Assembly: GCF_044324875.1 (NCBI RefSeq)
Contig: NZ_CP172188.1
Length of the DNA stretch: 64,000 nucleotides
Source of the DNA: Escherichia coli
GTDB taxonomy: Bacteria > Pseudomonadota > Gammaproteobacteria > Enterobacterales > Enterobacteriaceae
Reading direction: 5' to 3' (one strand)
Made by a program: the position numbers and the translations under genes. The notes under the pieces are model-generated. The model was not told the origin of the DNA and searched no databases. It saw only the letters and a list, made by a program, of their open reading frames with translations. Positions 12,452 through 64,000 of this stretch are shown one piece after another (the stretch's first letter is position 1; each line of letters starts with the position of its first letter).

Positions 12452-12528
12452 GATGGTGTAGCTCAGTAGGATAGAGCAGCAGCCTTCTAAGCTGTCGGTC
12501 GGTGGTTCGAATCCACCCACCATCGCCA
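12452..12528 (+). tRNA. tRNA-Arg (anticodon TCT)
   Basis: 77 nt; 7-bp acceptor stem GATGGTG/CACCATC, D-arm GCTC..GAGC, anticodon loop CTTCTAA, T-arm GGTGG TTCGAAT CCACC, encoded CCA. Confidence 0.9.
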
Positions 12529-12530
12529 AT

Positions 12531-12606
12531 GCCGGTTTAGCTCAGTTGGTAGAGCGCCTGCCTTGTAAGCAGGATGTCAGCGGTTCGAGTCCGTTAACCG
12601 GCACCA
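12531..12606 (+). tRNA. tRNA-Thr (anticodon TGT)
   Basis: 76 nt; acceptor GCCGGTT/AACCGGC, anticodon loop CTTGTAA, T-loop TTCGAGT, encoded CCA; P1 also carries a tRNA-Thr. Confidence 0.9.
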
Positions 12607-13561: not shown

Positions 13562-13637
13562 GGCCCTTTAGCTCAGTGGTTAGAGCTGGCGACTCATAAT
13601 CGCACGGTCACCGGTTCAAGTCCGGTAGGGGCCACCA
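13562..13637 (+). tRNA. tRNA with CAT anticodon, most likely tRNA-Ile2 (lysidine type) rather than elongator Met
   Basis: 76 nt; GGCCCTT acceptor, anticodon loop CTCATAA, T-loop TTCAAGT; resembles enterobacterial ileX-type tRNA as I recall it; P1 also encodes a tRNA-Ile. Confidence 0.85.
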
Positions 13638-35001: not shown

Positions 35002-36180
35002 ATGTTAAGAGCGACAAAAGTACGCATATATCCCACTACTGAACAGGCTGAGTATCTCAATGCCCAGTTCGGTGCGGTACGTTTTGCGTACAATAAAGCT
35101 CTTCACATCAAAAAACATGCTTACCAGCGATACGGGGTGAATTTAAGTCCGCGCAAAGATTTAAAGCCGTTGCTGTCTATAGCGAAGAAGTCCCGTAAGT
35201 ATGCCTGGCTCAAAGAGTTTGATTCAATGGCATTGCAACAGGCAGTAATTAATCTTGATGCGGCATTTTCCAACTTTTTTAATCCGAAGCTGAAAGCACG
35301 GTTCCCGACGTTTAAACGTAAACACGGGAGACAATCGAGCTATCACTGCACCGGAATCAAGGTGCTGGATGATGCCATTAAGATCCCTAAACTGAATCTG
35401 CCGATAAAGGCGCGTATACACCGTGTAATTACGGGAAAAGTAACGAGCATAACAATTACTCGCAATGCCGCTGGGGAATATCACGCATCCATCCTTTGTG
35501 ATGACGGTATTCCCGCGCCAGAGAAACCCACGTATCTGGAAGAAGAAAAGATTACTGGTGTGGACATGGGATTAACAGATTATGCCATCAAATCGGATGG
35601 TAATAAGGTTGGTAATCCTCGTCATCTCATCAATGCCAGTCGTAATCTGCGACGCAAACAAAAAGCGTTATCCCGCAAGCAAAAGGGAAGCGCGAACCGT
35701 AAAAAGGCCAGAATCCGTCTGGCAGCGTTACACGAACGGGTGGCTAATGCCCGTGCTGATTTTCAACACAAGCTCTCTCGTGCAATTGTTGACGAAAACC
35801 AAGCGGTAATTGTCGAGACGCTGAAAACAGCCAACATGATGAAAAACCACAATCTGGCAAGAGCGATAGGTGATGCAGGCTGGCATAGCTTCATCACAAA
35901 GCTGGAGTACAAGGCAGCGGAAAAAGGCGTTCACCTGGTAAAACTCGACCAGTGGTTTGCCAGTTCGAAAACGTGCCATTGTTGTGGTTACAAAATGCCG
36001 GAAATGCCGCTTCATAAACGCATCTGGCGATGCCCTGAATGTGGAGCAGAGCACGACCGCGATATCAATGCGGCGCTCAATATCCGGCAAAAAGGAATAC
36101 TGGAACTAAAGGCGGCGGGACTCGTCGTTTCTGTCCATGGAGGCCAGCGTAAATCCGTCGAACAGACGGTAGCGGCCTGA
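35002..36180 (+). CDS. tnpB: TnpB (OrfB; RNA-guided RuvC-like endonuclease)
   Basis: 392 aa; N-terminal MLRATKVRIYPTTEQAEYLNAQFGAVRFAYNKAL; C-terminal zinc finger CHCCGYK...CPECG and RuvC-III-like DRDINAALNI. Confidence 0.9.
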   Translation: MLRATKVRIYPTTEQAEYLNAQFGAVRFAYNKALHIKKHAYQRYGVNLSPRKDLKPLLSIAKKSRKYAWLKEFDSMALQQAVINLDAAFSNFFNPKLKARFPTFKRKHGRQSSYHCTGIKVLDDAIKIPKLNLPIKARIHRVITGKVTSITITRNAAGEYHASILCDDGIPAPEKPTYLEEEKITGVDMGLTDYAIKSDGNKVGNPRHLINASRNLRRKQKALSRKQKGSANRKKARIRLAALHERVANARADFQHKLSRAIVDENQAVIVETLKTANMMKNHNLARAIGDAGWHSFITKLEYKAAEKGVHLVKLDQWFASSKTCHCCGYKMPEMPLHKRIWRCPECGAEHDRDINAALNIRQKGILELKAAGLVVSVHGGQRKSVEQTVAA

Positions 36181-36992: not shown

Positions 36993-37041
36993 TGTTTTGA
37001 TCAATCATAGAAAAATAGCTGAAAAGTAAGAGGCAGCCATC

Positions 37042-37620
37042 ATGCAGAAACAGAGCTATTGGGAGAAACAGAGACAAAAAGCCATGCAAAAATTGGCTGA
37101 CCCAGCCTGGCGAGAGGAACAAAGGGCAAAGCGCCTTCAACAAGCTCAACGCCAGCAGCAGCGAGCGAGAGAAAAAGCCGCATCGCCTGAATATCGGCAA
37201 AAGAAAATTGAAAAAGCAAAGCAATATGAACAGCGGAGAAAAGATAAAGCTGTATCCGCTCCGCCCAAAAAAACACGCACGTCACGCGGCCTGAAGGGCA
37301 GATCACTCACAGCCGATGAACGCCGGATACAGACCGCTATCGGTACTCTCCCCTGCATTGCCTGCCATATTCACGGGCAACATAGCCCAGTGGTATCCCT
37401 GCACCATATCTTCGGGAGAACGGCAGAGAACGCACATAAATATGTCCTCCCTTTGTGTAAATGGCACCACCAGTACGCAGCGCCAGCCGAGGTCCGAGAA
37501 CAATATCCCTGGCTGGTCCCTGTTCATGCTGATGGAAAAATAGGCGGAAAAGCAGATTTCATACGGCACAATGCCGATGAAATGGCGTTGTATCAGATGG
37601 CGATTGAATTAATAAATTAG
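37042..37620 (+). CDS. ref: Ref recombination-enhancement HNH-family endonuclease
   Basis: 192 aa; basic N-terminus then SRGLKGRSLTADERRIQTAIGTLPCIACHIHG ... CKWHHQYAAPAEVREQYPWLVPVHADG, matching P1 Ref as I recall it. Confidence 0.85.
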   Translation: MQKQSYWEKQRQKAMQKLADPAWREEQRAKRLQQAQRQQQRAREKAASPEYRQKKIEKAKQYEQRRKDKAVSAPPKKTRTSRGLKGRSLTADERRIQTAIGTLPCIACHIHGQHSPVVSLHHIFGRTAENAHKYVLPLCKWHHQYAAPAEVREQYPWLVPVHADGKIGGKADFIRHNADEMALYQMAIELIN

Positions 37621-37631
37621 TTTTCTAACAT
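37611..37631 (-). promoter_or_regulatory. operator-like motif copy (reverse strand ATGTTAGAAAACTAATTTATT); candidate control site for the downstream immunity module
   Basis: Overlaps the ref stop codon; consensus copy. Confidence 0.5.
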
Positions 37632-37951
37632 TTTAAGTTGAATTGTAAATTTCTCCGATGTACATTCACTACCGATTGGCACACCGGTCAACTTTTTGAG
37701 ACAAACTGTTTAGTTTTTCGTATTATTGCCCCCGCCATACCTATGGCGGTGCAATATAGGTGGCTGAAAAGCCCCCGTTGACTCACGGTGTTCCAGCCTT
37801 TATTGCGCCGCCACCAGACCGTGGAACAGTCGATGGCGGCTCCGAAAGCAAGGAGTCACTACACTATGAACAACTACAGTCTTTTCCCATCACTCGTCGT
37901 CCACCACTCACGCGATAATCTGCATTCTTTATTCGCGCTGGGGGAGTCAAA

Positions 37952-38119
37952 ATGACTGTTCGCTACCTCAACTTTCAAATCAAGAACATTACTGGCGGTT
38001 GCTATGACTGGTTTGTCACTCTCGGAAAAGAAGTGATTACCGGGAAGCTGGATGAAGTGAAAGCTAAAGCAATGGCCTACGCCTGCAAGCAAGCCCGGAA
38101 GAAATCCGCCAAAGCATAA
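37952..38119 (+). CDS. possible small protein (55 aa)
   Basis: ATG with GGGGGAG RBS 7 nt upstream; below the ORF-track size cutoff. Confidence 0.3.
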   Translation: MTVRYLNFQIKNITGGCYDWFVTLGKEVITGKLDEVKAKAMAYACKQARKKSAKA

Positions 38120-38139
38120 AATACTGACTGTTGCGCCCT

Positions 38140-38430
38140 GGCATTATCGTGGGGTATATTTCTACGGCACCTTAGAAAAACGGGTGCCGGGATTGGAACC
38201 CCGGATAATGCAAAAGGCGACACAGACGCCGAAAGCGTCTTTTCTTGTGTCATGCCATCGCACAGCCATACGTAGCGTTTAGCTCAGAGATCAATGGTAG
38301 TGCTGGCTGGGCTGCCGAAAGGCAGGCCGGTTCCCTTTTGCGCCGGTAGTTCCAACCCAGTCAGTGCTACCGCCATTGAGATTGGAACCTCACGCGGTAG
38401 CTCCTTAAATTAGCAAAAGGAGGCTGCCAA
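38140..38430 (+). ncRNA. candidate c4-like antisense RNA / leader region of immunity module A
   Basis: Structured leader upstream of the icd-like gene: direct repeats GATTGGAACC (38192, 38383) and a partly complementary GTTCCAACC (38346); hairpin GACGCCGAAAGCGTC + T-run near 38223. Confidence 0.3.
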
Positions 38431-38431
38431 T

Positions 38432-38647
38432 ATGGCTACTATCCCTACCCCAACTCATTCTGAATTTATCTGGCGTTTCTATTCCTGCCAAAAACACCTG
38501 TATATCTGCGTCATGGCTGCAACCGAAGCAGAAGCTCGTTCATACCTTCCTGAAGAACCCTGCATTTTTGCCGCACGCTTCACTCTTGATGCGATGGAGA
38601 TCCTCAATTACTGGAATCTGCCAATGAACTGCGTGGAGGTGCACTGA
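38432..38647 (+). CDS. Icd-like small protein (module A)
   Basis: 71 aa; paralog of 62161..62385 (shared SEFIWRF, QKH, AATE-EARS); stop overlaps ant start (TGATG) as for icd-ant coupling in P1. Confidence 0.5.
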   Translation: MATIPTPTHSEFIWRFYSCQKHLYICVMAATEAEARSYLPEEPCIFAARFTLDAMEILNYWNLPMNCVEVH

Positions 38648-39588
38648 TGAATCTGTCCATCTCTCAAAAAGCGACAATGACCAGCATTGAGATCGCGGAA
38701 CTGGTAGGAAGTCGCCAAGATAGTGTGAAGAGAACTATCGAAACACTGGCTAAAAAGAGTGTGATCCAATTTCCACAATCTGTGGAAATTGAAAATAAAC
38801 AATCAGTTGGCCCTCGTCGATTTTCCAAGGCTTACATCTTTGAAGGCGAACAAGGCAAGCGCGATAGTATCATTGTCGTCGCACAGCTCTCTCCGGAATT
38901 CACCGCCCGGCTGGTGGACCGCTGGCGCGAACTGGAGAATGCCAGGGGACCGTTAAAATCAAAAGCCGAAATCCTGGCTGAAATGGCGCAAATGCATCTT
39001 GAGCATGAACGCCGGATCAACGCCGTAAATGCCCAGGTAGCCGAGGTATCAGCACAAGTATCGATGGTCGCTGAAACACTCGAGCAAATAAAGAAAGGCA
39101 ATATGCCGGAAGGCTACATTGGCTACCGCCAGCTGGCGGCGAAATGCGGCCTGACTGAAGCCAAATGTCGCAACCTGGTTAACGCTTACCGGATACCCAC
39201 TGATACGCATGAGTTTTTGACTCCCGACGGTTTGCTTGCGCGACGCTCAATTGTGGCCCTGGCCCCCTTCCGGAAAGCCTTTAAGCAGGTTATGTCGGAG
39301 GCAGAACCACGCAACAAACGCTGGTATCATCCAAAGATGGGGATGTTTCAGGCAATCCACCATCCTGTGCCTGAAAGTCCAAAGGCAAACCTGTCGTTGC
39401 ATACCGCCAGAGAGAGGATTAAAACAGGGTATGCAATCGTATGCCGTCGAGCATCTTGGCCTGAAGGTGTATGGGTATGGCCCGAAGGTGGATCACGAAA
39501 GCACTGGCGCACTATCCGGGATGGGAAAATCCATGCGATTGATTTAGCTCCAGAGGATGTTGTTGCTACGGACTGGATTGTTAGTTAA
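38647..39588 (+). CDS. antirepressor-like protein: Rha-family N-terminal domain fused to DUF2829/Tad2-like C-terminal domain (module A)
   Basis: 313 aa; N-terminal MTSIEIAELVGSRQDSVKRTIE; C-terminal CRRASWPEGVWVWPEGG ... DLAPEDVVATDWIVS. Confidence 0.65.
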   Translation: MNLSISQKATMTSIEIAELVGSRQDSVKRTIETLAKKSVIQFPQSVEIENKQSVGPRRFSKAYIFEGEQGKRDSIIVVAQLSPEFTARLVDRWRELENARGPLKSKAEILAEMAQMHLEHERRINAVNAQVAEVSAQVSMVAETLEQIKKGNMPEGYIGYRQLAAKCGLTEAKCRNLVNAYRIPTDTHEFLTPDGLLARRSIVALAPFRKAFKQVMSEAEPRNKRWYHPKMGMFQAIHHPVPESPKANLSLHTARERIKTGYAIVCRRASWPEGVWVWPEGGSRKHWRTIRDGKIHAIDLAPEDVVATDWIVS

Positions 39589-39596
39589 TTACTGTT

Positions 39597-39620
39597 GCCC
39601 CGGCCTGTCCGGGGCTTTAA
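39597..39620 (+). terminator. rho-independent terminator
   Basis: GCCCCGGCCTGTCCGGGGCTTT. Confidence 0.6.
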
Positions 39621-39647
39621 CTACTAAATAACCGGATTCTCCGCACG

Positions 39648-39932
39648 ATGAAGAAAATAGATTTCACTTACTCTGCTGCCACAATCCAGCGACGTTTCAG
39701 TCTCATAAGGGAAGTGGAACTATCAAAAAACTGGTATCAAATTCTACTGGATGAAGAGTTTTCACTGATGGTTATAGCAGAAAAATTGGCTATGCCGAAT
39801 GACCGGCACAAGGTCATAGCCAGCCTGGATCTGGTGACAAACAGATACTGGGAATCCGAGGAACTACTTGAAGTTGGCTTGATACGCGAGATGATAGAAC
39901 AGGCTGTTCCCCTCCACTTACAGCAACCATAA
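39648..39932 (+). CDS. hypothetical protein
   Basis: 94-aa ORF, ATG start. Confidence 0.4.
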   Translation: MKKIDFTYSAATIQRRFSLIREVELSKNWYQILLDEEFSLMVIAEKLAMPNDRHKVIASLDLVTNRYWESEELLEVGLIREMIEQAVPLHLQQP

Positions 39933-40068
39933 TTGAAAGGTCTTAACGATAGTCTGCCACGAATAGTTACTTTCACTGCCTAAAGTTATTTAATTGCATT
40001 ACAAAGTGTAAATTAGTAACATTAGAATCTCACACAGCACTATAACTATATGTTTTTTATGTAAAAGG

Positions 40069-41530: not shown

Positions 41531-42286
41531 TTAACGCGTTTTTTCGCTGCTTTCCACTACCGGGGGATTTTTCCTCAGTGACTCTCCCTGAAGGACCACT
41601 CGGTGTGAGTTATGTACCAGTCTGTCCAGGATGGCATCTGCTGTTGTTGGGTTCTCCATCAGACCATGCCATTTATCTACCGGGAACTGGCTTACCACTA
41701 TCGTGCTGCTTTGTCCGTAACGATCCTCTATGAGCTCCAGAAGGTCATTACACTGGGCGTTACTTAACTGTTCCAGCCCCAGATCGTCCAGGATTAGAAC
41801 CTGTATTTTTTGCAACTGTTTCAGATATTTCAGCCAGCTGCCATCAACACGTCCCTGAGCCAGTTGTTCCAGTAATCGCCCGGTTCTACAGTACCGGACG
41901 CTGTGTTTCTGTCGACATGCCTGTTCGCCCAGCGCATTGGCTATCCAGCTCTTGCCACATCCTGTCGGACCGGTTATCAGCAGGTTTTTCCTGTGGGTTA
42001 TGTAGTGGCCGTTCAGCAGTTCTCTCATCTGTTCAGCCCGCAGACCTCTTGAGGCCGGATAGCGCAGCCCTTCCGGTGTTGCCTGGTATTTCAGGCCGGC
42101 ATTTTTTCTCAACCGTGCCACACGGCTGTTTTCCCTGCTCAGAAGCTCGTCATCAACCAGCAGCGTCAGCCTTTCCTCGAACGACAGTTCGTCGTAGGTC
42201 TGAGGCGTTTCCCGCTGCCGTATCAGGCTCCCGGCCATCGCCGGGAGTTTCAGTTGGGTCAGTTTGTTTAACAGGTTATCACTCAT
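41531..42286 (-). CDS. istB: IS21 helper ATPase IstB
   Basis: Walker A LLITGPTGCGKS, Walker B VLILDDLG; start set at MSDNLL. Confidence 0.88.
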   Translation of the reverse strand: MSDNLLNKLTQLKLPAMAGSLIRQRETPQTYDELSFEERLTLLVDDELLSRENSRVARLRKNAGLKYQATPEGLRYPASRGLRAEQMRELLNGHYITHRKNLLITGPTGCGKSWIANALGEQACRQKHSVRYCRTGRLLEQLAQGRVDGSWLKYLKQLQKIQVLILDDLGLEQLSNAQCNDLLELIEDRYGQSSTIVVSQFPVDKWHGLMENPTTADAILDRLVHNSHRVVLQGESLRKNPPVVESSEKTR

Positions 42287-42302
42287 ACTGTTGTTCCTTC
42301 TG

Positions 42303-43838
42303 TCAGTGGTAGTAGCCCGGACCACGCAGGTTTTCATGCTCTGAAGCATATGCCGGATGTTGTTCGCCCTGGCGGGATAATGGAAGCTCCAGGTTCTCCC
42401 GATGGTGACGCAGCAGATTGTCGATAAAGCGTCTGTCAGGGGCGTTATAGTGCAGGGCAACGTAACAGGCCTTTTCCAGCCGTTCCGGGCCGTATTTTTT
42501 CTGAAGTGCCAGCAGCCCCAGAACTGCACGATAAGCCAGTTCCGGATGGGGTTTTGCCTTCAGCATGGATTCAACCACCCGGCCTGTGGACGGGCCCGTA
42601 CGTTTTCCCTGCTCGATCAGGCGTTCCGGTGTCCATGTCCCGTGCTGCCGGTGGCGCTCTGGCATGTGAAGCGGATTGGTTGTGTGTTTATATTCATGTG
42701 TGCTGCGCGGATGTTGCGCCACACACTGCCCCTTGTGCCAGAGCTGTACCACCGACTGCCCCGCCTTCAGTGACAGACGCTGACCGACCAGTTCGTGTGG
42801 AACGGAGTACCAGTGACGGGCATATTCAACGTGGTAGTCAGGGCCAACCTTCACAGCTTTGTATTCCGTGTATTCATAAGGTGCCAGAGGCAGCGGAGAG
42901 AGTGCTGGCGCATCCAGTATGCGGAAGCGTTCTGCACGGGTTTGATTGCCGTACCCCTTCATTGGCCGGTTATTCATGTCTGTCAGTAACTCCCTAAGGC
43001 GCGCATTCAGCGCCCTGAGCGTGTGGAAGGTTTCATTACGGATGCGGGCAAGAAGCCATCGTTCAACGATGAGGACGCCGTTTTCTGCTTTTGGTTTATC
43101 TTTAGGTTTGCGTGGTCGGGCCGGGATGATAACCGTGCCATAGTGCTCAGCCAGTGCCTGATAACTGTCGTTGATGACAGGCTCATATCGATCGGCCTTT
43201 TTCACTGCGCTTCTGAGGTTATCGGGGATGAGCAGCTTCGGTACGCCGCCCAGGAAGGTCAGGCAACGGCTGTGGGCATTTAACCATGACATCATGTCCT
43301 GACCTTCGCACGCTTCAACGTAGGTATAGTTGGACGCCCCCATTACGGCCACGAAGATTGCCACGCGGCGTATCTCACCGGTGTCCGGATTAATAACAGG
43401 AACCGTAGGACCACAGAAGTCGATAAAAAGCTTTTCGCCGGCACGATGCTCCTGGCGCATGGAGAGACGTCGCGTTTTTTTCCACTCCCGGTAGCAACGG
43501 CAGAAGTGCGAGTATCCCATCGCTTTGTTACCCGCCTGTGCCTTGTATTCCATCCACAACAGTTGCCGCGTCACACCTGGTTTTCTCATTTCCGTATCGA
43601 AGTACAACATGTCAGGCATTACAAGCTCTGATGCAAAGGTGTCTTTGGGCGGAAAAATGAGTTTCTCCAGCGTGTCATGGGATATATCAGCAGGTAATGG
43701 CCATGACAGAGAAGAGGCTTTGAAGCGGGCAAGAACCTCAAAAACGGTTGAGGCGCTGATGTGTAACGTCAGTCCGATACAACGGTTAGTCAGCTTCTTG
43801 TCGAACTTGAGCTGAAGGATCTTAAAACAGGTTTCCAT
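42303..43838 (-). CDS. istA: IS21 transposase IstA
   Basis: 511 aa from METCFKIL; N-terminal HTH and DDE-type core. Confidence 0.85.
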   Translation of the reverse strand: METCFKILQLKFDKKLTNRCIGLTLHISASTVFEVLARFKASSLSWPLPADISHDTLEKLIFPPKDTFASELVMPDMLYFDTEMRKPGVTRQLLWMEYKAQAGNKAMGYSHFCRCYREWKKTRRLSMRQEHRAGEKLFIDFCGPTVPVINPDTGEIRRVAIFVAVMGASNYTYVEACEGQDMMSWLNAHSRCLTFLGGVPKLLIPDNLRSAVKKADRYEPVINDSYQALAEHYGTVIIPARPRKPKDKPKAENGVLIVERWLLARIRNETFHTLRALNARLRELLTDMNNRPMKGYGNQTRAERFRILDAPALSPLPLAPYEYTEYKAVKVGPDYHVEYARHWYSVPHELVGQRLSLKAGQSVVQLWHKGQCVAQHPRSTHEYKHTTNPLHMPERHRQHGTWTPERLIEQGKRTGPSTGRVVESMLKAKPHPELAYRAVLGLLALQKKYGPERLEKACYVALHYNAPDRRFIDNLLRHHRENLELPLSRQGEQHPAYASEHENLRGPGYYH

Positions 43839-43941
43839 AGTGCTCCTGGATTTTCTCTTTCTGGACATTGACGTCTCCACTGGTTTAAACACGGCAATGG
43901 AGACTGTGGTGAAAAGAGTTAATTCCCGGAGTGACTGGCAG

Positions 43942-44060
43942 GATGCCAATCAATGATCGGAAGCATGCCAAATCGTGATCGATTGTGATGCCAAACTGTG
44001 ATCGGAGATGGATGCCAAATCATGATCGATTCGAATGCCAAACTGCGATCGATTCAGATG
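43942..44060. repeat. five tandem ~23-bp repeats at the IS21-family end
   Basis: GATGCCAATCAATGATCGG / CATGCCAAATCGTGATCG / GATGCCAAACTGTGATCGG / GATGCCAAATCATGATCG / AATGCCAAACTGCGATCG. Confidence 0.7.
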
Positions 44061-60298: not shown

Positions 60299-61104
60299 TG
60301 CTTGATTCAATAGGTGAAGTTAAAGCCTTCAAAATTCTGTCAGATGCCGGTATCTCTACACCAGAATCTATAACCATAAGCCGGGCAGCTTCTGTAAAAG
60401 CCTCATCGCTCGCCAGCGCCATACAGGGAATAGTTCACGCCGATAAAACCTATCCTGATTCTGTTTCGGCCTGGACTACTCAATTGCTTGGCTTTTCTGA
60501 ACAGCTCAATGAGGCCAGCAAAGCGTCTTCATCACTGGCTGATTCTCTTTCCCCATACACCAAGCCATCAGAGCTGTTACAGATGAAGATTGGCTGGGAA
60601 TGCTACGCAAAAGGTAACGAGCTGACCCCCATACCTGCTTTCGCCCTTGTTGAGGGAATGGGGAATGTTTCCATTCCGCAATCTCTAACGGACGCATTGA
60701 CGGCGCTAAAACTTGATGCTCTGAAAACCGCCATGAACGCCATTAACGCAAAAATTGAAGCTGCCGGAAGTGCTGGTGGTGGTGAAAGCAATGGTGGACA
60801 GGGTGGTGCTGGGGGCGCTCAGGCTCCAGTCATTACTCAGGATGAAATTGATGCTTTACGGGAAGCAGTGACAGCCGCCGAAGTTTTACTCTCCGAAATT
60901 AACTCAGCAAGTGAGGGTGTCGTAGCCCTTACAGGTCGCATTAAAACGTCAACCACTCAGGCAACCAAAGGTTTAGAGAACGCTGTCGCCATCACGTTAA
61001 CTGGTTCTCTACTGGATGATGCAGTAATGAGTCCGGCAATCAGTTTAATCATGCCACAAGGCGTTATTGATGCGCTCCAAAAGAACACCAAAAAGGAACC
61101 ATAG
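60298..61104 (+). CDS. hypothetical protein (start at MLDSIGE, TAATG overlap with PAAR-like gene)
   Basis: ORF 60199..61104; Gly-rich linker GSAGGGESNGGQGGAGGAQAP. Confidence 0.45.
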   Translation: MLDSIGEVKAFKILSDAGISTPESITISRAASVKASSLASAIQGIVHADKTYPDSVSAWTTQLLGFSEQLNEASKASSSLADSLSPYTKPSELLQMKIGWECYAKGNELTPIPAFALVEGMGNVSIPQSLTDALTALKLDALKTAMNAINAKIEAAGSAGGGESNGGQGGAGGAQAPVITQDEIDALREAVTAAEVLLSEINSASEGVVALTGRIKTSTTQATKGLENAVAITLTGSLLDDAVMSPAISLIMPQGVIDALQKNTKKEP

Positions 61105-61159
61105 AAACACCACTTAGGCACACAAAAGGATGTATATTGGTACATGTTTAACACCAAAA

Positions 61160-61633
61160 ATGAACCTGAAGAGGATGGTTTTGAAAAAGATAATTTTGAT
61201 TGTAATTGCGCTTTTAGCCATTTCTGGAATTTACCGAACAACGACGGCAGTTATCGAACACATCAGGTATGTCCGATCGCTTGAAGACTCAAAATCACAA
61301 CTGGAAAGCACGAACAACACGCTTTCTACCGCATTACAGTTAAGTGAGAACGCTCGCTCAGCCATGCTGACCGAAAACGAAAGAATTAAAGCACTGGAAA
61401 AGGAGTACCAGCGCAAAACAGCAGAACTGAATGCCAACCTAATCAAACAACGAGAGGAAAGCCAGAATGAAATCACTCGCCTTGAAAATGCGTTGCGCCG
61501 TGCTGGGATTAACGATGTGCGTGTGCCTGATGACGTTATCAGGATGCAGCGGGAACGGGCAAAAGCCATCAACCAGCGTGCCAGTGAAAATTACCGTAGA
61601 AGCCACCAGCAAGCCGCAGGCAAATCTGATTGA
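61160..61633 (+). CDS. i-spanin (Rz-like): N-terminal TM anchor + periplasmic coiled-coil
   Basis: ORF 61130..61633; KKIILIVIALLAISGIY then coiled-coil. Confidence 0.6.
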   Translation: MNLKRMVLKKIILIVIALLAISGIYRTTTAVIEHIRYVRSLEDSKSQLESTNNTLSTALQLSENARSAMLTENERIKALEKEYQRKTAELNANLIKQREESQNEITRLENALRRAGINDVRVPDDVIRMQRERAKAINQRASENYRRSHQQAAGKSD

Positions 61634-61793
61634 TTACTCCCCTTGTTTAGTGCCAGAGGACACGCCAGTGCTGTTAAACAAGTATCCGACATACGCTGAA
61701 CAGTTATTCAGCACGATCGACGAATGCAACCAACGAAACGCACTGAATAACCAAAGAAACAGGGAGATTTGGGAAGGGAAGGGGCGGCAGTGA
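61467..61793 (+). CDS. o-spanin (Rz1-like lipoprotein), overlapping the i-spanin in the +1 frame
   Basis: Lipobox LTMCVCLMTLSGCSG; starts inside the i-spanin gene and extends past its stop. Confidence 0.6.
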   Translation: MKSLALKMRCAVLGLTMCVCLMTLSGCSGNGQKPSTSVPVKITVEATSKPQANLIDYSPCLVPEDTPVLLNKYPTYAEQLFSTIDECNQRNALNNQRNREIWEGKGRQ

Positions 61794-61820
61794 GCTTCAC
61801 AAAATCTATATAGCTATTTT

Positions 61821-61838
61821 ATGTTAGAAAAATAATTT
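61821..61838 (+). promoter_or_regulatory. operator-like motif copy (ATGTTAGAAAAATAATTT), candidate control site of immunity module B
   Basis: Consensus copy ~100 nt upstream of the c4-like leader. Confidence 0.5.
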
Positions 61839-61899
61839 GAATTTTCGAACATAAACAATAAAATAAATCATCAAAAATTTGATGTTGATCTTCCATGTT

Positions 61900-62160
61900 T
61901 TCAGGCTTATATTCACGCCGTTGCAGCAAATTCTGCGACCGGGTTTAGCAGCCTGAATGTACATGCGGACAACCGCAGATATCCGATATTGCGGTATTTT
62001 TGTGTCCGTAAAACCATGTTACGCCCGAATTATGGTGGGGCGTGATGGGGAGGCTTCGGCCTGCTGGTTTCATGTACGCCAGTCTGCTAACCCCGTCACG
62101 TCCTGCCACCCGTTTAGCAGCGGGTAGCAGGTTGTTAAACCTGTACATGAGGCCGTAACT
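61900..62160 (+). ncRNA. candidate c4-like antisense RNA locus of immunity module B
   Basis: Paired elements a=TTTAGCAG and b=GTACATG occur at 61945/61958 and again at 62112/62141; complements (CATGTAC at 62066, CTGCTAA at 62085) lie between in reversed order. Confidence 0.35.
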
Positions 62161-62385
62161 ATGGTTAATGCCAATCCTTGCTCACGTCCAGAATTCATCT
62201 GGCGTTTTCACTCCCTGCAAAAACACTGCGATCACTTCGCAATTGCCGCAACTGAAAAAGAAGCCCGTTCTCTGATCCCTGATCAGTATGGTGTTCTTAC
62301 TGGTCGTTTCTCTACTTCCCCACAACCAAACACTAATCCCTGGTATCGCAATATTACCAATCCCGGAATTGCGGAGGCACACTGA
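62161..62385 (+). CDS. Icd-like small protein (module B)
   Basis: 74 aa; paralog of 38432..38647; stop overlaps ant start (TGATG). Confidence 0.5.
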   Translation: MVNANPCSRPEFIWRFHSLQKHCDHFAIAATEKEARSLIPDQYGVLTGRFSTSPQPNTNPWYRNITNPGIAEAH

Positions 62386-63305
62386 TGGATATCTGCATTC
62401 TTGAAAAGCCATCAATGACCAGCATTGAGATCGCGGAGCTGGTGGGAAGTCGTCCAGATAACGTAAAAATATCAATAGAGCGCCTGGCTAAATCTGGAGT
62501 TATTCAACTTCCTGCATTGCAGGTTTTCGAAAAAATCAATAACTTAGGACTACGCCGTAGTGTCGAGGCTTACGTCTTCGAAGGCGAGCAAGGCAAACGA
62601 GACAGCATTATTGTCGTTGCGCAGCTCTCTCCCGAATTCACCGCCCGGCTGGTGGACCGCTGGCGCGAACTGGAAGAACAAGTACGCCAGCCGTTGACCG
62701 AAATAGAGATGATCGCCGCAATGGCTGCAAATGCAGTTCAGCAGCAAAAGCGGCTTCATGTTGTTGAGTCAAAGGTTAGCCAGGTTGCTGAAACCGTCGA
62801 GCAGATCAAGAAGGGCAACATGCCAGAAGGTTACATTGGCTACCGCCAGCTGGCGGCGAAATGTGGCCTGACTGAAGCCAAATGTCGCAACCTGGTTAAC
62901 GCTTTCCGGATTCCCACCGATACGCATGAGTTTTTAACTCCAGATGGTTTGCTTGCGCGACGCTCCATTGTGGCCCTGGCCCCCTTCCGGAAAGCCTTTA
63001 AGCAGGTGATGTCGGAGGCAGAACCACGCAACAAACGCTGGTATCATCCGAAGATGGGGCTGTTTCAGGCAATCCATCATCCTGTGCCTGAAAGCCCAAA
63101 GGATAATCTGTCACTACATACCGTCAGAGAGAAGATCAGGACTGGATACGCAACAGTGTGTCGTCGTTCTTCCTGGCCTGAAGGTATATGGGTGTGGCCC
63201 GAAGGTGGATCACGAAAGCACTGGCGCACTATCCGGGACGGGAAAATCCATGCTATTGATTTAGCGCCAGAGGATATTGTTGCTACGGACTGGATTGTTA
63301 GTTAA
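62385..63305 (+). CDS. antirepressor-like protein: Rha-family N-terminal domain fused to DUF2829/Tad2-like domain (module B)
   Basis: 306 aa; N-terminal 60 aa and middle linker differ from module A, C-terminal 200 aa nearly identical. Confidence 0.65.
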   Translation: MDICILEKPSMTSIEIAELVGSRPDNVKISIERLAKSGVIQLPALQVFEKINNLGLRRSVEAYVFEGEQGKRDSIIVVAQLSPEFTARLVDRWRELEEQVRQPLTEIEMIAAMAANAVQQQKRLHVVESKVSQVAETVEQIKKGNMPEGYIGYRQLAAKCGLTEAKCRNLVNAFRIPTDTHEFLTPDGLLARRSIVALAPFRKAFKQVMSEAEPRNKRWYHPKMGLFQAIHHPVPESPKDNLSLHTVREKIRTGYATVCRRSSWPEGIWVWPEGGSRKHWRTIRDGKIHAIDLAPEDIVATDWIVS

Positions 63306-63313
63306 TTACTGTT

Positions 63314-63336
63314 GCCCCGGCCTGTCCGGGGCTTTC
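63314..63336. terminator. terminator hairpin
   Basis: GCCCCGGCCTGTCCGGGGCTTTCG. Confidence 0.55.
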
Positions 63337-63340
63337 GTGA

Positions 63341-63745
63341 CTAAAAATCTGTTCGCTGTCGCCATGCGTTTTTTAACTCAGGAATATCCGCCATTTCAAT
63401 TAACTTGCGAAGTCCAGCACTGACTTTCCCATTGCCAACCATAGCAAGCCAATCTCTTACAGCTTTCGGCATGTAGAGCGTTGCAGTTACCGGCTCTTCA
63501 ACCCTGGCAGGACATCCGCATACAGGCCATTTAATTGATTCCATAACTTCGGATGCCGGGGTGAGGGCGGGGACATTGAGTATATCTCTACCAGAAAACT
63601 GGATAACGATCCGTTCAGCGAGCGAGAGTATCTCACTTTCGGCAAGAATTGATGCCAACTGCGCCTCAACAAGAAAGCGACTTGTTGTGTTCAGAGAGTG
63701 GCTCTTAGCGCCATTTTTATACGAAACAAAGATTCGATACGCCAT
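63341..63745 (-). CDS. hypothetical protein
   Basis: 134-aa ORF; operator-like motif just upstream of its start. Confidence 0.45.
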   Translation of the reverse strand: MAYRIFVSYKNGAKSHSLNTTSRFLVEAQLASILAESEILSLAERIVIQFSGRDILNVPALTPASEVMESIKWPVCGCPARVEEPVTATLYMPKAVRDWLAMVGNGKVSAGLRKLIEMADIPELKNAWRQRTDF

Positions 63746-63758
63746 AACTCTAATGATT

Positions 63759-63778
63759 TGTGTTAGAAAACTAAAATT
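63759..63778 (+). promoter_or_regulatory. operator-like motif copy (TGTGTTAGAAAACTAAAATT)
   Basis: 14 nt upstream of the 63341..63745 start. Confidence 0.5.
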
Positions 63779-64000
63779 AAATCACATAACAACATGTGTG
63801 TTAATAGATTTTATTTTACTAAACCTATTGACTAAATCACAAAGTAGGTATTGTTAGCCCGTCAAAAGAACCTTCACGCCGCGCCCGAATTTAGGGCTTA
63901 ACCGTGAATAAAAACATTCAGCCAGCTCGTGATCGCGAGCGCGAGATTATGAATCGGGCGGCAAGCGTCATGGCTATGACCGTCGATCCGACCACCGATG

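Follow-up and report, generated by a model that had tools for sequence, protein, structure and literature searches.

Phage-plasmids related to Escherichia phage D6 are common in E. coli and Salmonella and often travel with resistance plasmids. The 64-kb stretch of E. coli DNA analyzed here (contig NZ_CP172188.1; hereafter the window) is, on sequence, a D6-like plasmid prophage, and its positions 37611–39620 hold an immunity module, module A, which on the anatomy of its RNAs and open reading frames (ORFs) is a complete module of the type known from the immI locus of phage P1. Module A probably operates as a self-contained post-transcriptional switch of that type, and as one of three that reside in the same genome with non-cognate recognition; the others are module B, near the right end of the window, and module C, which is cut by its left edge. 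C4-type antisense control is the textbook account of heteroimmunity between phages P1 and P7, and to our knowledge it has been studied essentially as one module with two alleles. The switch itself is known, and the presence of several mutually blind copies is a modest extension of it. As such, these modules would provide a natural set of orthogonal RNA repressor–target pairs, with two to three switches per genome and a sizeable repertoire of alleles, a testable model for mutual exclusion or induction among phage-plasmids, and comparative evidence for the function of the a1 and b1 sites, long labelled "putative".

The elements of module A were assigned using the annotated immI of P1 as the key, in whose record the layout is a1/b1/c4/a2/b2/icd/ant, with a1 and b1 labelled "putative". 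All features lie on the plus strand unless stated otherwise. An IsrK-type leader RNA (38167–38250) was delimited by Rfam, a terminator scan, its predicted fold and co-variation; the isrK family (RF01394) matches 38167–38245 at 59.4 bits (gathering threshold 50) over model positions 1–77 of 77. In the predicted leader fold, a1 (TTGGAAC, 38193–38199) occupies a hairpin loop and b1 (GCAAAAGG, 38210–38217) is single-stranded, and the leader ends in an intrinsic terminator found by the terminator scan (stem 38224–38240, with a T-run to 38250). The C4 antisense RNA gene follows at 38290–38377, matching RF01695 at 76.7 bits (gathering threshold 45) over model positions 1–87 of 87, with b′ (CCUUUUGC, 38334–38341) in the loop of its hairpin 2 and a′ (GUUCCAA, 38349–38355) in its junction. 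Downstream, a2 (TTGGAAC, 38382–38388) lies in the icd leader, and b2 (GCAAAAGG, 38413–38420) overlaps the Shine-Dalgarno sequence AAGGAGG (38417–38423), 9 nt before the ATG of an icd-like ORF of 71 amino acids (aa; 38432–38647; NCBIfam phage_ICD_like NF033153, E=3e-13). Icd-A shares 56% identity with P1 Icd and 40% with Icd-B/C, and its stop overlaps the start of ant-A in the sequence TGATG. The module closes with a G+C-rich hairpin read from the sequence, GCCCCGG...CCGGGGC followed by TTT (39597–39619), which recurs 3′ of ant-B (~63313–63335) and of the module C ORF (~512–537), and which is absent from the terminator scan list because its T-run is short.

An earlier note on this DNA had described, 3′ of ref, a second array of operator, leader, icd-like gene and ant, and all of the listed elements are found in place. 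The leader repeats on which it relied are exact, GATTGGAACC occurring exactly twice in the window (38191–38200 and 38380–38389) with the partly complementary GTTCCAACC between both copies (38349–38357). These repeats make up the a set only; the b set, which the note missed, is a second recognition pair, in which the two copies of GCAAAAGG have their complement, CCTTTTGC, in the C4 hairpin loop at 38334–38341.

The locus is old acquaintance at the DNA level. Window positions 37000–40000 align at 97% identity with the finished sequence of D6, itself a plasmid prophage of the P1-like kind, and both have the gene order ref, two small ORFs, icd-like, "anti-repressor Ant" and pmgF-like. The orf83/orf82 region of D6 (MF356679 / NC_050154) is the same locus as module A, with 97% nucleotide identity and the same Rfam matches. 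Positions 37600–39620 are 100% identical in several ~93-kb E. coli plasmids, such as CP057047.1, to which the left end of the window is 98% identical, and they match 456 plasmid records, 92 of these at a coverage of at least 80%. Because module A stands in the D6 genome and in these 92 plasmids, it is no assembly artefact; that explanation of the duplication was rejected for module A, which is collinear, together with its flanks, with finished D6 and the 92 complete plasmids.

Module A is thus already present in the published D6 genome, without RNA-level analysis: the RNAs of the region carry no annotation in the D6 record. A literature search found no description of the orthogonality of co-resident copies or of the size of the allele repertoire, the D6 genome paper being outside its coverage. 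Two protein annotations do run across the RNA genes. RefSeq/PGAP places an "ash family protein" coding sequence over the C4 gene (window 38294–38413; NZ_OY754373.1 29559–29678, WP_001396852.1), almost certainly a protein call upon an RNA gene, comparable to "orf45" over STnc1160 in the Salmonella prophage Gifsy-1, and D6 orf84, on the opposite strand, also overlaps the isrK/C4 region. The module A leaders of D6 and the window are nearly identical outside the a′ allele, which is GUCUCAA in D6 (targets TTGAGAC) and GUUCCAA in the window (targets TTGGAAC). Since these alleles differ, heteroimmunity is predicted between the two elements at module A.

The specificity of each C4 was assessed as the longest perfect Watson–Crick run between its exposed loop and junction and the candidate target sites. 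For modules A, B and C alike, the perfect run between cognate partners is 7 nt for a and 8 nt for b, upstream as well as downstream of C4; among non-cognate combinations of the three it never exceeds 6 nt for a and 5 nt for b, in agreement with the distinct antisense specificities that the earlier note had proposed for A and B. Whole-molecule RNAduplex energies of each C4 against each leader did not discriminate between the pairs, because the structured C4 was allowed to unfold. The recognition elements are a′ GUUCCAA and b′ CCUUUUGC in module A, CUGCUAA and UCAUGUAC in module B, and CUGUCAA and UCGUAAGU in module C (taken from a relative), compared with CUGUCAA and UCACUAAC in P1 and CUGCUAA and UCACAAUC in P7. 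Between P1 and P7, the classical heteroimmune pair, a′ and b′ differ at 2 nt each. Their heteroimmunity has been ascribed to "minor nucleotide differences" (PMC6906374). Each of the pairs A/B, A/C and B/C differs in its recognition elements by at least as much as P1 does from P7, so that each C4 should control its own operon only; the three co-resident switches should be mutually non-cognate, and no cross-talk between them is expected.

Surveys of about 190 related loci, across an isrK-type and a P1-type set, show how consistently this pairing has been maintained. Icd-based retrieval from IMG/VR yielded 80 loci with isrK-type leaders, representing 30 distinct leaders. Across them, the a1/a′/a2 alleles are TTGGAAC, TTGAGAC or TTGGTCT, with the three sites shifting in concert; in one group a1 is TTGGCCT and a2 TTGGTCT, both of which pair with a′ AGGCCAA, a2 by means of a G·U pair. 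The b1/b′/b2 alleles are GCAAAAGG, GTCAAAGG or GTCTAAGG, the leaders show six (a′,b′) combinations, and pairing is kept in all those compared, occasionally by G·U. The P1-type set, gathered by an exact-pattern scan for the conserved core of the P1-type C4, comprises 117 loci with 12 (a′,b′) combinations drawn from two a′ and seven b′ alleles. Of the P1-type loci, 111 have complete flanks, and in 110 of these a1, b1, a2 and b2 are exactly complementary to the C4 of the same locus (the b1 match being judged on 7 of 8 nt). At the exceptional locus (allele CUGCUAA / UCUUGAAC), b2 mismatches its own b′ and a1, b1 and a2 match; it could be a decaying or transitional module.

As sequence matches, these 7-nt and 8-nt complementarities are far beyond chance. 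That a1/a′/a2 and b1/b′/b2 change together is strong comparative evidence for functional pairing. The C4 stems covary as well: among 14 distinct sequences, 97.4% of the cells are paired and 12 of 22 pairs have changed on both sides, a count that leaves out hairpin 2 (alignment shift); the covariation score was matched by none of 500 shuffles, and slid controls were 34–54% paired. Concerted change and C4 covariation together support a functional antisense system and a real role for a1 and b1. A diversification of anti-immunity functions, which we can only infer, would fit this repertoire of alleles.

The possession of more than one module is not peculiar to the window; a second module is normal in the D6-like family. 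D6 has modules A and C, an A-type icd occurs together with a B/C-type icd on at least 11 D6-like IMG/VR contigs, and the P1-like phages RCS47 and JL22 each combine a canonical P1-type immI with an isrK-type module elsewhere. A second c4/icd region in the D6-like plasmid pYU39_89 was mentioned in a 2019 paper (PMC6799933), and extra icd-ant homologues and a variable ImmI region have been noted in P1-like plasmids (PMC6906374). These copy numbers contradict the premise of the earlier note that a single element normally needs only one module. Its "remnant third" copy at 1–504 likewise had to be abandoned: the same place holds a complete module in CP057047.1 and D6, and in the window the left edge truncates a full module, of which the 3′ portion is left. 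This portion of module C (1–537) comprises ant-C from residue ~135 (to position 307), a 65-aa ORF (307–504) in TGATG overlap with the end of ant-C, and the terminator hairpin. In CP057047.1 and D6 the complete module C lies 3′ of repL and consists of a c4-a1b1 element, C4 (69.6 bits in Rfam in the complete relatives), icd, a 235-aa Rha-type ant and the coupled 65-aa ORF.

In RCS47 the isrK-type module (NC_042128.1 ~103405–105004) sits between pacB and c1; its counterpart in JL22 is at ON018986.2 ~96407–96736. The Ant encoded there has 54% identity to P1 Ant1, which sets it apart from the Rha-type Ants that D6-like elements carry.

The unusual extra copy in the window genome is module B rather than module A. 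Module B (61823–63335), located by Rfam, promoter scan, motif and sequence, opens with an inverted pair of operator-like sites (61823–61835, plus strand; 61838–61850, minus strand) and two promoter-like sites (61837–61864 and 61885–61913). These are followed by a c4-a1b1 element recognized by Rfam (61907–61959; a1 61945–61951, b1 61959–61965), by C4-B (62028–62113; Rfam 71.7 bits; b′ UCAUGUAC at 62070–62077 and a′ CUGCUAA at 62084–62090), by a2 (62114–62120) and b2 (62143–62150), and by icd-B (62161–62385) and ant-B (62385–63305). The site as a whole (61640–63340) is a variable cargo site, bounded by upfB/orf55-like genes and by a 134-aa gene beside the capsid gene. In most relatives, D6 and CP057047.1 included, the place of a module is taken by two small genes on the reverse strand. 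Only 12 of 589 matching plasmids cover module B and its flanks to at least 80%. About 10 plasmids, CP020051 among them, carry an identical B leader and C4; downstream of these they encode a 71-aa Icd and an ORF6N-domain protein that is 92% identical to Ant-A over its last 222 aa.

The copy in the window is a mosaic. Positions 61100–62226 and 62783–63800 are 98–99% identical to the B-site module of CP020051, and the 556 bp between them (62227–62782, most of icd and the 5′ part of ant) match repL-adjacent C-type modules at 99.5% identity. The patch has the appearance of a gene conversion between co-resident modules in which the leader, and with it the specificity, stayed intact; a mis-resolved assembly path is a possible source too, one that would leave module A unaffected. 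It is on this mosaic that the case for a collapsed or chimeric contig can be built, since a core resembling C-type modules within flanks resembling another plasmid's B-site module makes a wrong path between repeats conceivable, and the full-length module B of the window is reproduced in no PLSDB record. Even so, an artefactual duplication is highly improbable, given that A-, B- and C-site modules each occur independently in many complete records and that both flanks of module B lie in B-site context, so that two switches of path would have been needed.

The same variability raises the question of whether the extra modules confer any benefit. They might be redundant by-products of modular recombination, cassettes that hitch-hike at hot spots without being selected; in keeping with this, the content of the B site varies between two small genes, a module of the ORF6N type (about 10 plasmids) and the mosaic of the window, the Ant proteins are themselves mosaics of domains, and ImmI is a variable region in P1-like elements (PMC6906374). 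We regard this as improbable, because modules A and C are stably co-inherited in D6, the 11 IMG/VR contigs and dozens of plasmids, and the copies retain intact ORFs and matched a1/b1/a′/b′/a2/b2 sets, exact in the 110 of 111 P1-type loci. Moreover, neutrality predicts identical or decayed copies, but co-resident copies differ in specificity with one exception; on the two contigs with two P1-type C4 genes, for example, the copies differ in b′. The exception, and the sole case seen of co-resident copies with identical specificity, is IMGVR_UViG_2698536372_000019, with two isrK-type C4 genes of the same (a′,b′) at ~2393 and ~3959, about 1.5 kb apart; either a tandem duplication or an assembly repeat might account for it.

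Three known systems inform the mechanism that we favor for module A. One is the immI locus of P1 and P7 (c4–icd–ant1/ant2), which has the same order and logic, namely promoter(s) with a C1 operator (a candidate operator in module A), a1/b1, C4, a2/b2, an Icd-like ORF and an overlapping effector, and whose specificity is likewise set by a few bases. There are also differences. The leader of module A is of the isrK class rather than c4-a1b1; its recognition sequences are unrelated to those of P1/P7; its effector belongs to the Rha family, without similarity to Ant1/2; its candidate operator motif differs from the P1 C1 consensus; it is followed by pmgF rather than by kilA-repL; and its genome carries two further modules. 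The isrK–orf45 (STnc1160)–anrP locus of Gifsy-1 resembles module A in having an IsrK-type leader with a terminator, then a complementary RNA of ~80 nt and a coupled antirepressor-type gene, but in module A the Icd-like ORF lies between C4 and ant, whereas in Gifsy-1 "orf45" overlaps the RNA and anrP is directly next to it. The third is the CI RNA of satellite phage P4 (seqA/seqC), likened here by description only, in which a small RNA processed from the leader pairs with sites on either side, as in module A; IsrK has been described as a structural homologue of P4 SeqA (PMC4825925). The outcome in P4 is premature termination of the transcription of replication genes, in contrast to the proposed occlusion of the icd ribosome-binding site in module A.

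On these precedents, transcription of module A would start near 38167 from the proximal promoter, and many transcripts would end at the leader terminator (38224–38250), yielding a short IsrK-type RNA with a1 and b1 exposed. Both short and read-through isoforms arise from the IsrK promoter of Gifsy-1 (PMC4825925). Read-through transcripts would contain C4 and would presumably be processed to a stable structured RNA, as with P1 C4, P4 CI and Gifsy-1 STnc1160, the last a processed RNA of ~80 nt that is complementary to IsrK (PMC4825925). The b′ loop and a′ junction of C4 would then pair with b2 and a2 of the same mRNA species, and since b2 covers the icd ribosome-binding site, Icd would remain untranslated and the overlapping (TGATG) ant cistron silent; repression of icd, translational coupling and Rho polarity on ant would operate as they do in P1. 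The switch would open once C4 is outnumbered, for instance when the element enters a cell devoid of the cognate C4. Alternatively, extra RNA bearing a1 and b1 might titrate C4 or remodel the mRNA, in the manner of the short IsrK of Gifsy-1, which acts in trans to activate translation of the downstream ORF and, through coupling, of the antirepressor (PMC4825925). A further boost might come from an operator-linked distal promoter after inactivation of C1. With several such switches, a lysogen would be expected to silence incoming relatives that have any of its specificities, and an infecting genome would need just one specificity absent from the resident to express an Ant.

Two promoter candidates and one candidate operator were read from the sequence upstream of the leader. 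The operator-like motif GTTAGAAAACTAA (37617–37629, minus strand) lies directly past the ref stop and is an exact copy of a motif, GTTAGAAAAYTAA, which extends roughly to TGTTAGAAAACTAATTT and occurs at 21 sites in the window with at most two mismatches, against 3.3 ± 1.9 expected, an approximately 6-fold enrichment. Its sites, among them 9965, 19506(−), 31446/31461, 36965, 37617(−), 52758/52773, 61823/61838 and 63762, lie upstream of c1, ref, modules A and B and several operons, some of them as inverted pairs, and the motif is also found in module C of a relative. The P1 C1 operator consensus has no site in the window. The motif is plausibly a D6-type C1 operator, to which C1 would bind. Adjoining the copy at module A is a weak distal σ70-like promoter candidate (TTGAAT, 17 nt, TACATT; 37638–37666), which has 8 of 12 consensus matches, falls under the threshold of the promoter scan, and is a possible counterpart of the C1-controlled P1 promoter P2c4/P51a. 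The proximal candidate (TTGCGC, 18 nt, TATATT; 38131–38160) is directly 5′ of the IsrK-type RNA, and divergent isrK-type leaders retain its TTGCGC −35 and a TATnnT −10 with a variable spacer; it possibly corresponds to P1 P1c4/P51b and Gifsy-1 PisrK. In module B the operators abut the two promoter-like sites, as in P1.

This arrangement lends some weight to a different division of labor, in which module A would be mainly an IsrK-type induction switch, independent of the SOS response: stress would raise the short leader RNA and with it icd-ant translation and prophage induction, and the repL-adjacent module C would be the true immI. The leader of module A is indeed of the isrK class and has its own terminator; its proximal promoter has no operator-like motif nearby, and modules B and C have operator pairs directly 5′ of their promoters, as in P1. 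IsrK levels in Gifsy-1 go up in stationary phase and when Mg2+ is low, and spontaneous induction of that prophage depends on IsrK and on its promoter (PMC4825925). We nevertheless consider this reading somewhat unlikely, because the isrK-type leaders diversify in concert just as the P1-type ones do, which is expected of a phage–phage specificity determinant and not of a stress sensor; besides, roles in induction and in heteroimmunity are compatible with each other.

The view of module A as a self-contained, orthogonal immI-type switch has to be held against several observations that weigh the other way. Its functional steps are all argued by analogy. The fold of the IsrK-type leader is no more stable than that of shuffled sequence (z = −1.14). 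The sole operator-like motif is ~500 bp 5′ of the proximal promoter of module A, with two unrelated small ORFs between, and that distance and the intervening ORFs make C1 control of the module uncertain. In Gifsy-1, activation was explained by pairing between IsrK and the mRNA rather than by titration of a C4-like RNA (PMC4825925), and constitutive STnc1160 failed to block the toxicity of IsrK (PMC4825925). The a′ of module C is identical to that of P1; as a′ is shared by some types, it may be mainly b′ that secures orthogonality. Module B is both rare and a mosaic, and three modules may therefore be a transient state. Finally, Ant-A shows no detectable similarity to P1 Ant1 (the best BLASTP segment, a coiled stretch, has E=0.013), so that the term "antirepressor" rests on position and on PHROG/Rha naming.

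Ant-A itself (313 aa; 38647–39588) matches Pfam Phage_pRha (E=9e-6) and PHROG families 63, 6610 and 7385, with E=3e-60 for PHROG 63, "anti-repressor Ant". It consists of an N-terminal Rha-type winged-helix domain, a middle part common to Ant-B/C and a C-terminal domain of ~65 aa (39391–39585). The earlier note had contrasted near-identical C-termini of Ant-A and Ant-B with divergent N-termini, and alignment bears this out: the two proteins are 76% identical overall and agree at 160 of the last 171 aa. At the nucleotide level, the 3′ halves of ant in modules A and B are ~95% identical, compared with 40–65% for the leaders, icd and the 5′ half of ant. The Ant family as a whole is a domain mosaic, in which any of three N-termini (ORF6N or one of two Rha types) is joined to a common middle and C-terminal part.

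Fused to the rest of the protein in Ant-A and Ant-B, the C-terminal ~65 aa (PHROG 7385) have a coupled ORF of their own in module C; their best structural matches, like the only Pfam family hinted at, point to the Tad2/AcrIIA7 proteins (DUF2829, PF11195). The module C ORF matches PF11195 end to end but faintly (E=0.068), and one of five family members in the alignment reaches E=8.6e-5, with three of five at E≤0.1; a Pfam search with the fused Ant-A gave no PF11195 match. In a Foldseek search of the PDB with an AlphaFold model of the domain (predicted local distance difference test score, pLDDT, 76), the top five matches were SPO1 Tad2 chains, at probabilities of 0.96–0.99 and E-values from 0.03. 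A sequence-profile search of the PDB with the 65-aa domain returned no Tad2. Relatives of the domain are few (three in a word-indexed protein search, five in a full HMMER search), and NCBIfam has no match for Ant-A/B, the small ORFs or the 65-aa ORF. A DUF2829 (Tad2/AcrIIA7)-like fold is plausible for the C-terminal domain, with weak to moderate support; compared with Tad2/AcrIIA7 itself, the similarity is marginal and the domain is shorter and fused to a Rha-type protein.

Should the domain prove Tad2/AcrIIA7-like, the timing of an anti-defence function would also fall to the switch. The payload could then be an anti-defence effector instead of, or besides, an antirepressor, with the C4 switch gating a domain directed against host immune signalling or CRISPR at entry. 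Its occurrence both fused and separate is the fusion/fission pattern of an independent unit, the PF11195 and Foldseek matches agree on the family, and Ant-A is unrelated to P1 Ant1. This account is rather unlikely in our estimation, in view of the PDB profile search, a domain shorter than the solved Tad2 proteins, and the N-terminal Rha/ORF6N domains and PHROG families, which indicate an antirepressor or DNA-binding role. More broadly, and as a tentative proposal that we hold to be doubtful, a combinatorial a/b "address code" on several mutually blind C4 switches in each D6- or P1-like phage-plasmid, with at least 12 P1-type and 6 isrK-type combinations, may decide which co-infecting relatives are silenced and which resident prophages are overcome, and the gated payload may include the Tad2/AcrIIA7-like domain, wiring superinfection immunity and host counter-defence through one RNA switch.

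The two small overlapping ORFs between the distal and proximal promoter candidates (37833–38119; 40 aa at 37833–37955 and 55 aa at 37952–38119) are equivalents of D6 orf86 and orf85, and the 55-aa ORF matches PHROG 7786 (E=4e-43). Both are missing from the isrK-type module of RCS47, and they are therefore probably no component of the switch. Compared with D6, the window has two putative mobile-element insertions. One is a TnpB/IS605-like candidate, a 392-aa ORF at 35002–36180 with a Cys-rich, zinc-finger-like C-terminal motif; the other is an IS21-like istB/istA candidate pair, adjacent reverse-strand ORFs of 332 and 548 aa at 41531–43949, of which the 332-aa ORF has a Walker-A-like ATPase motif. 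Three tRNA genes, at 12452–12603 and 13562–13634, are likewise present in D6 and P1.

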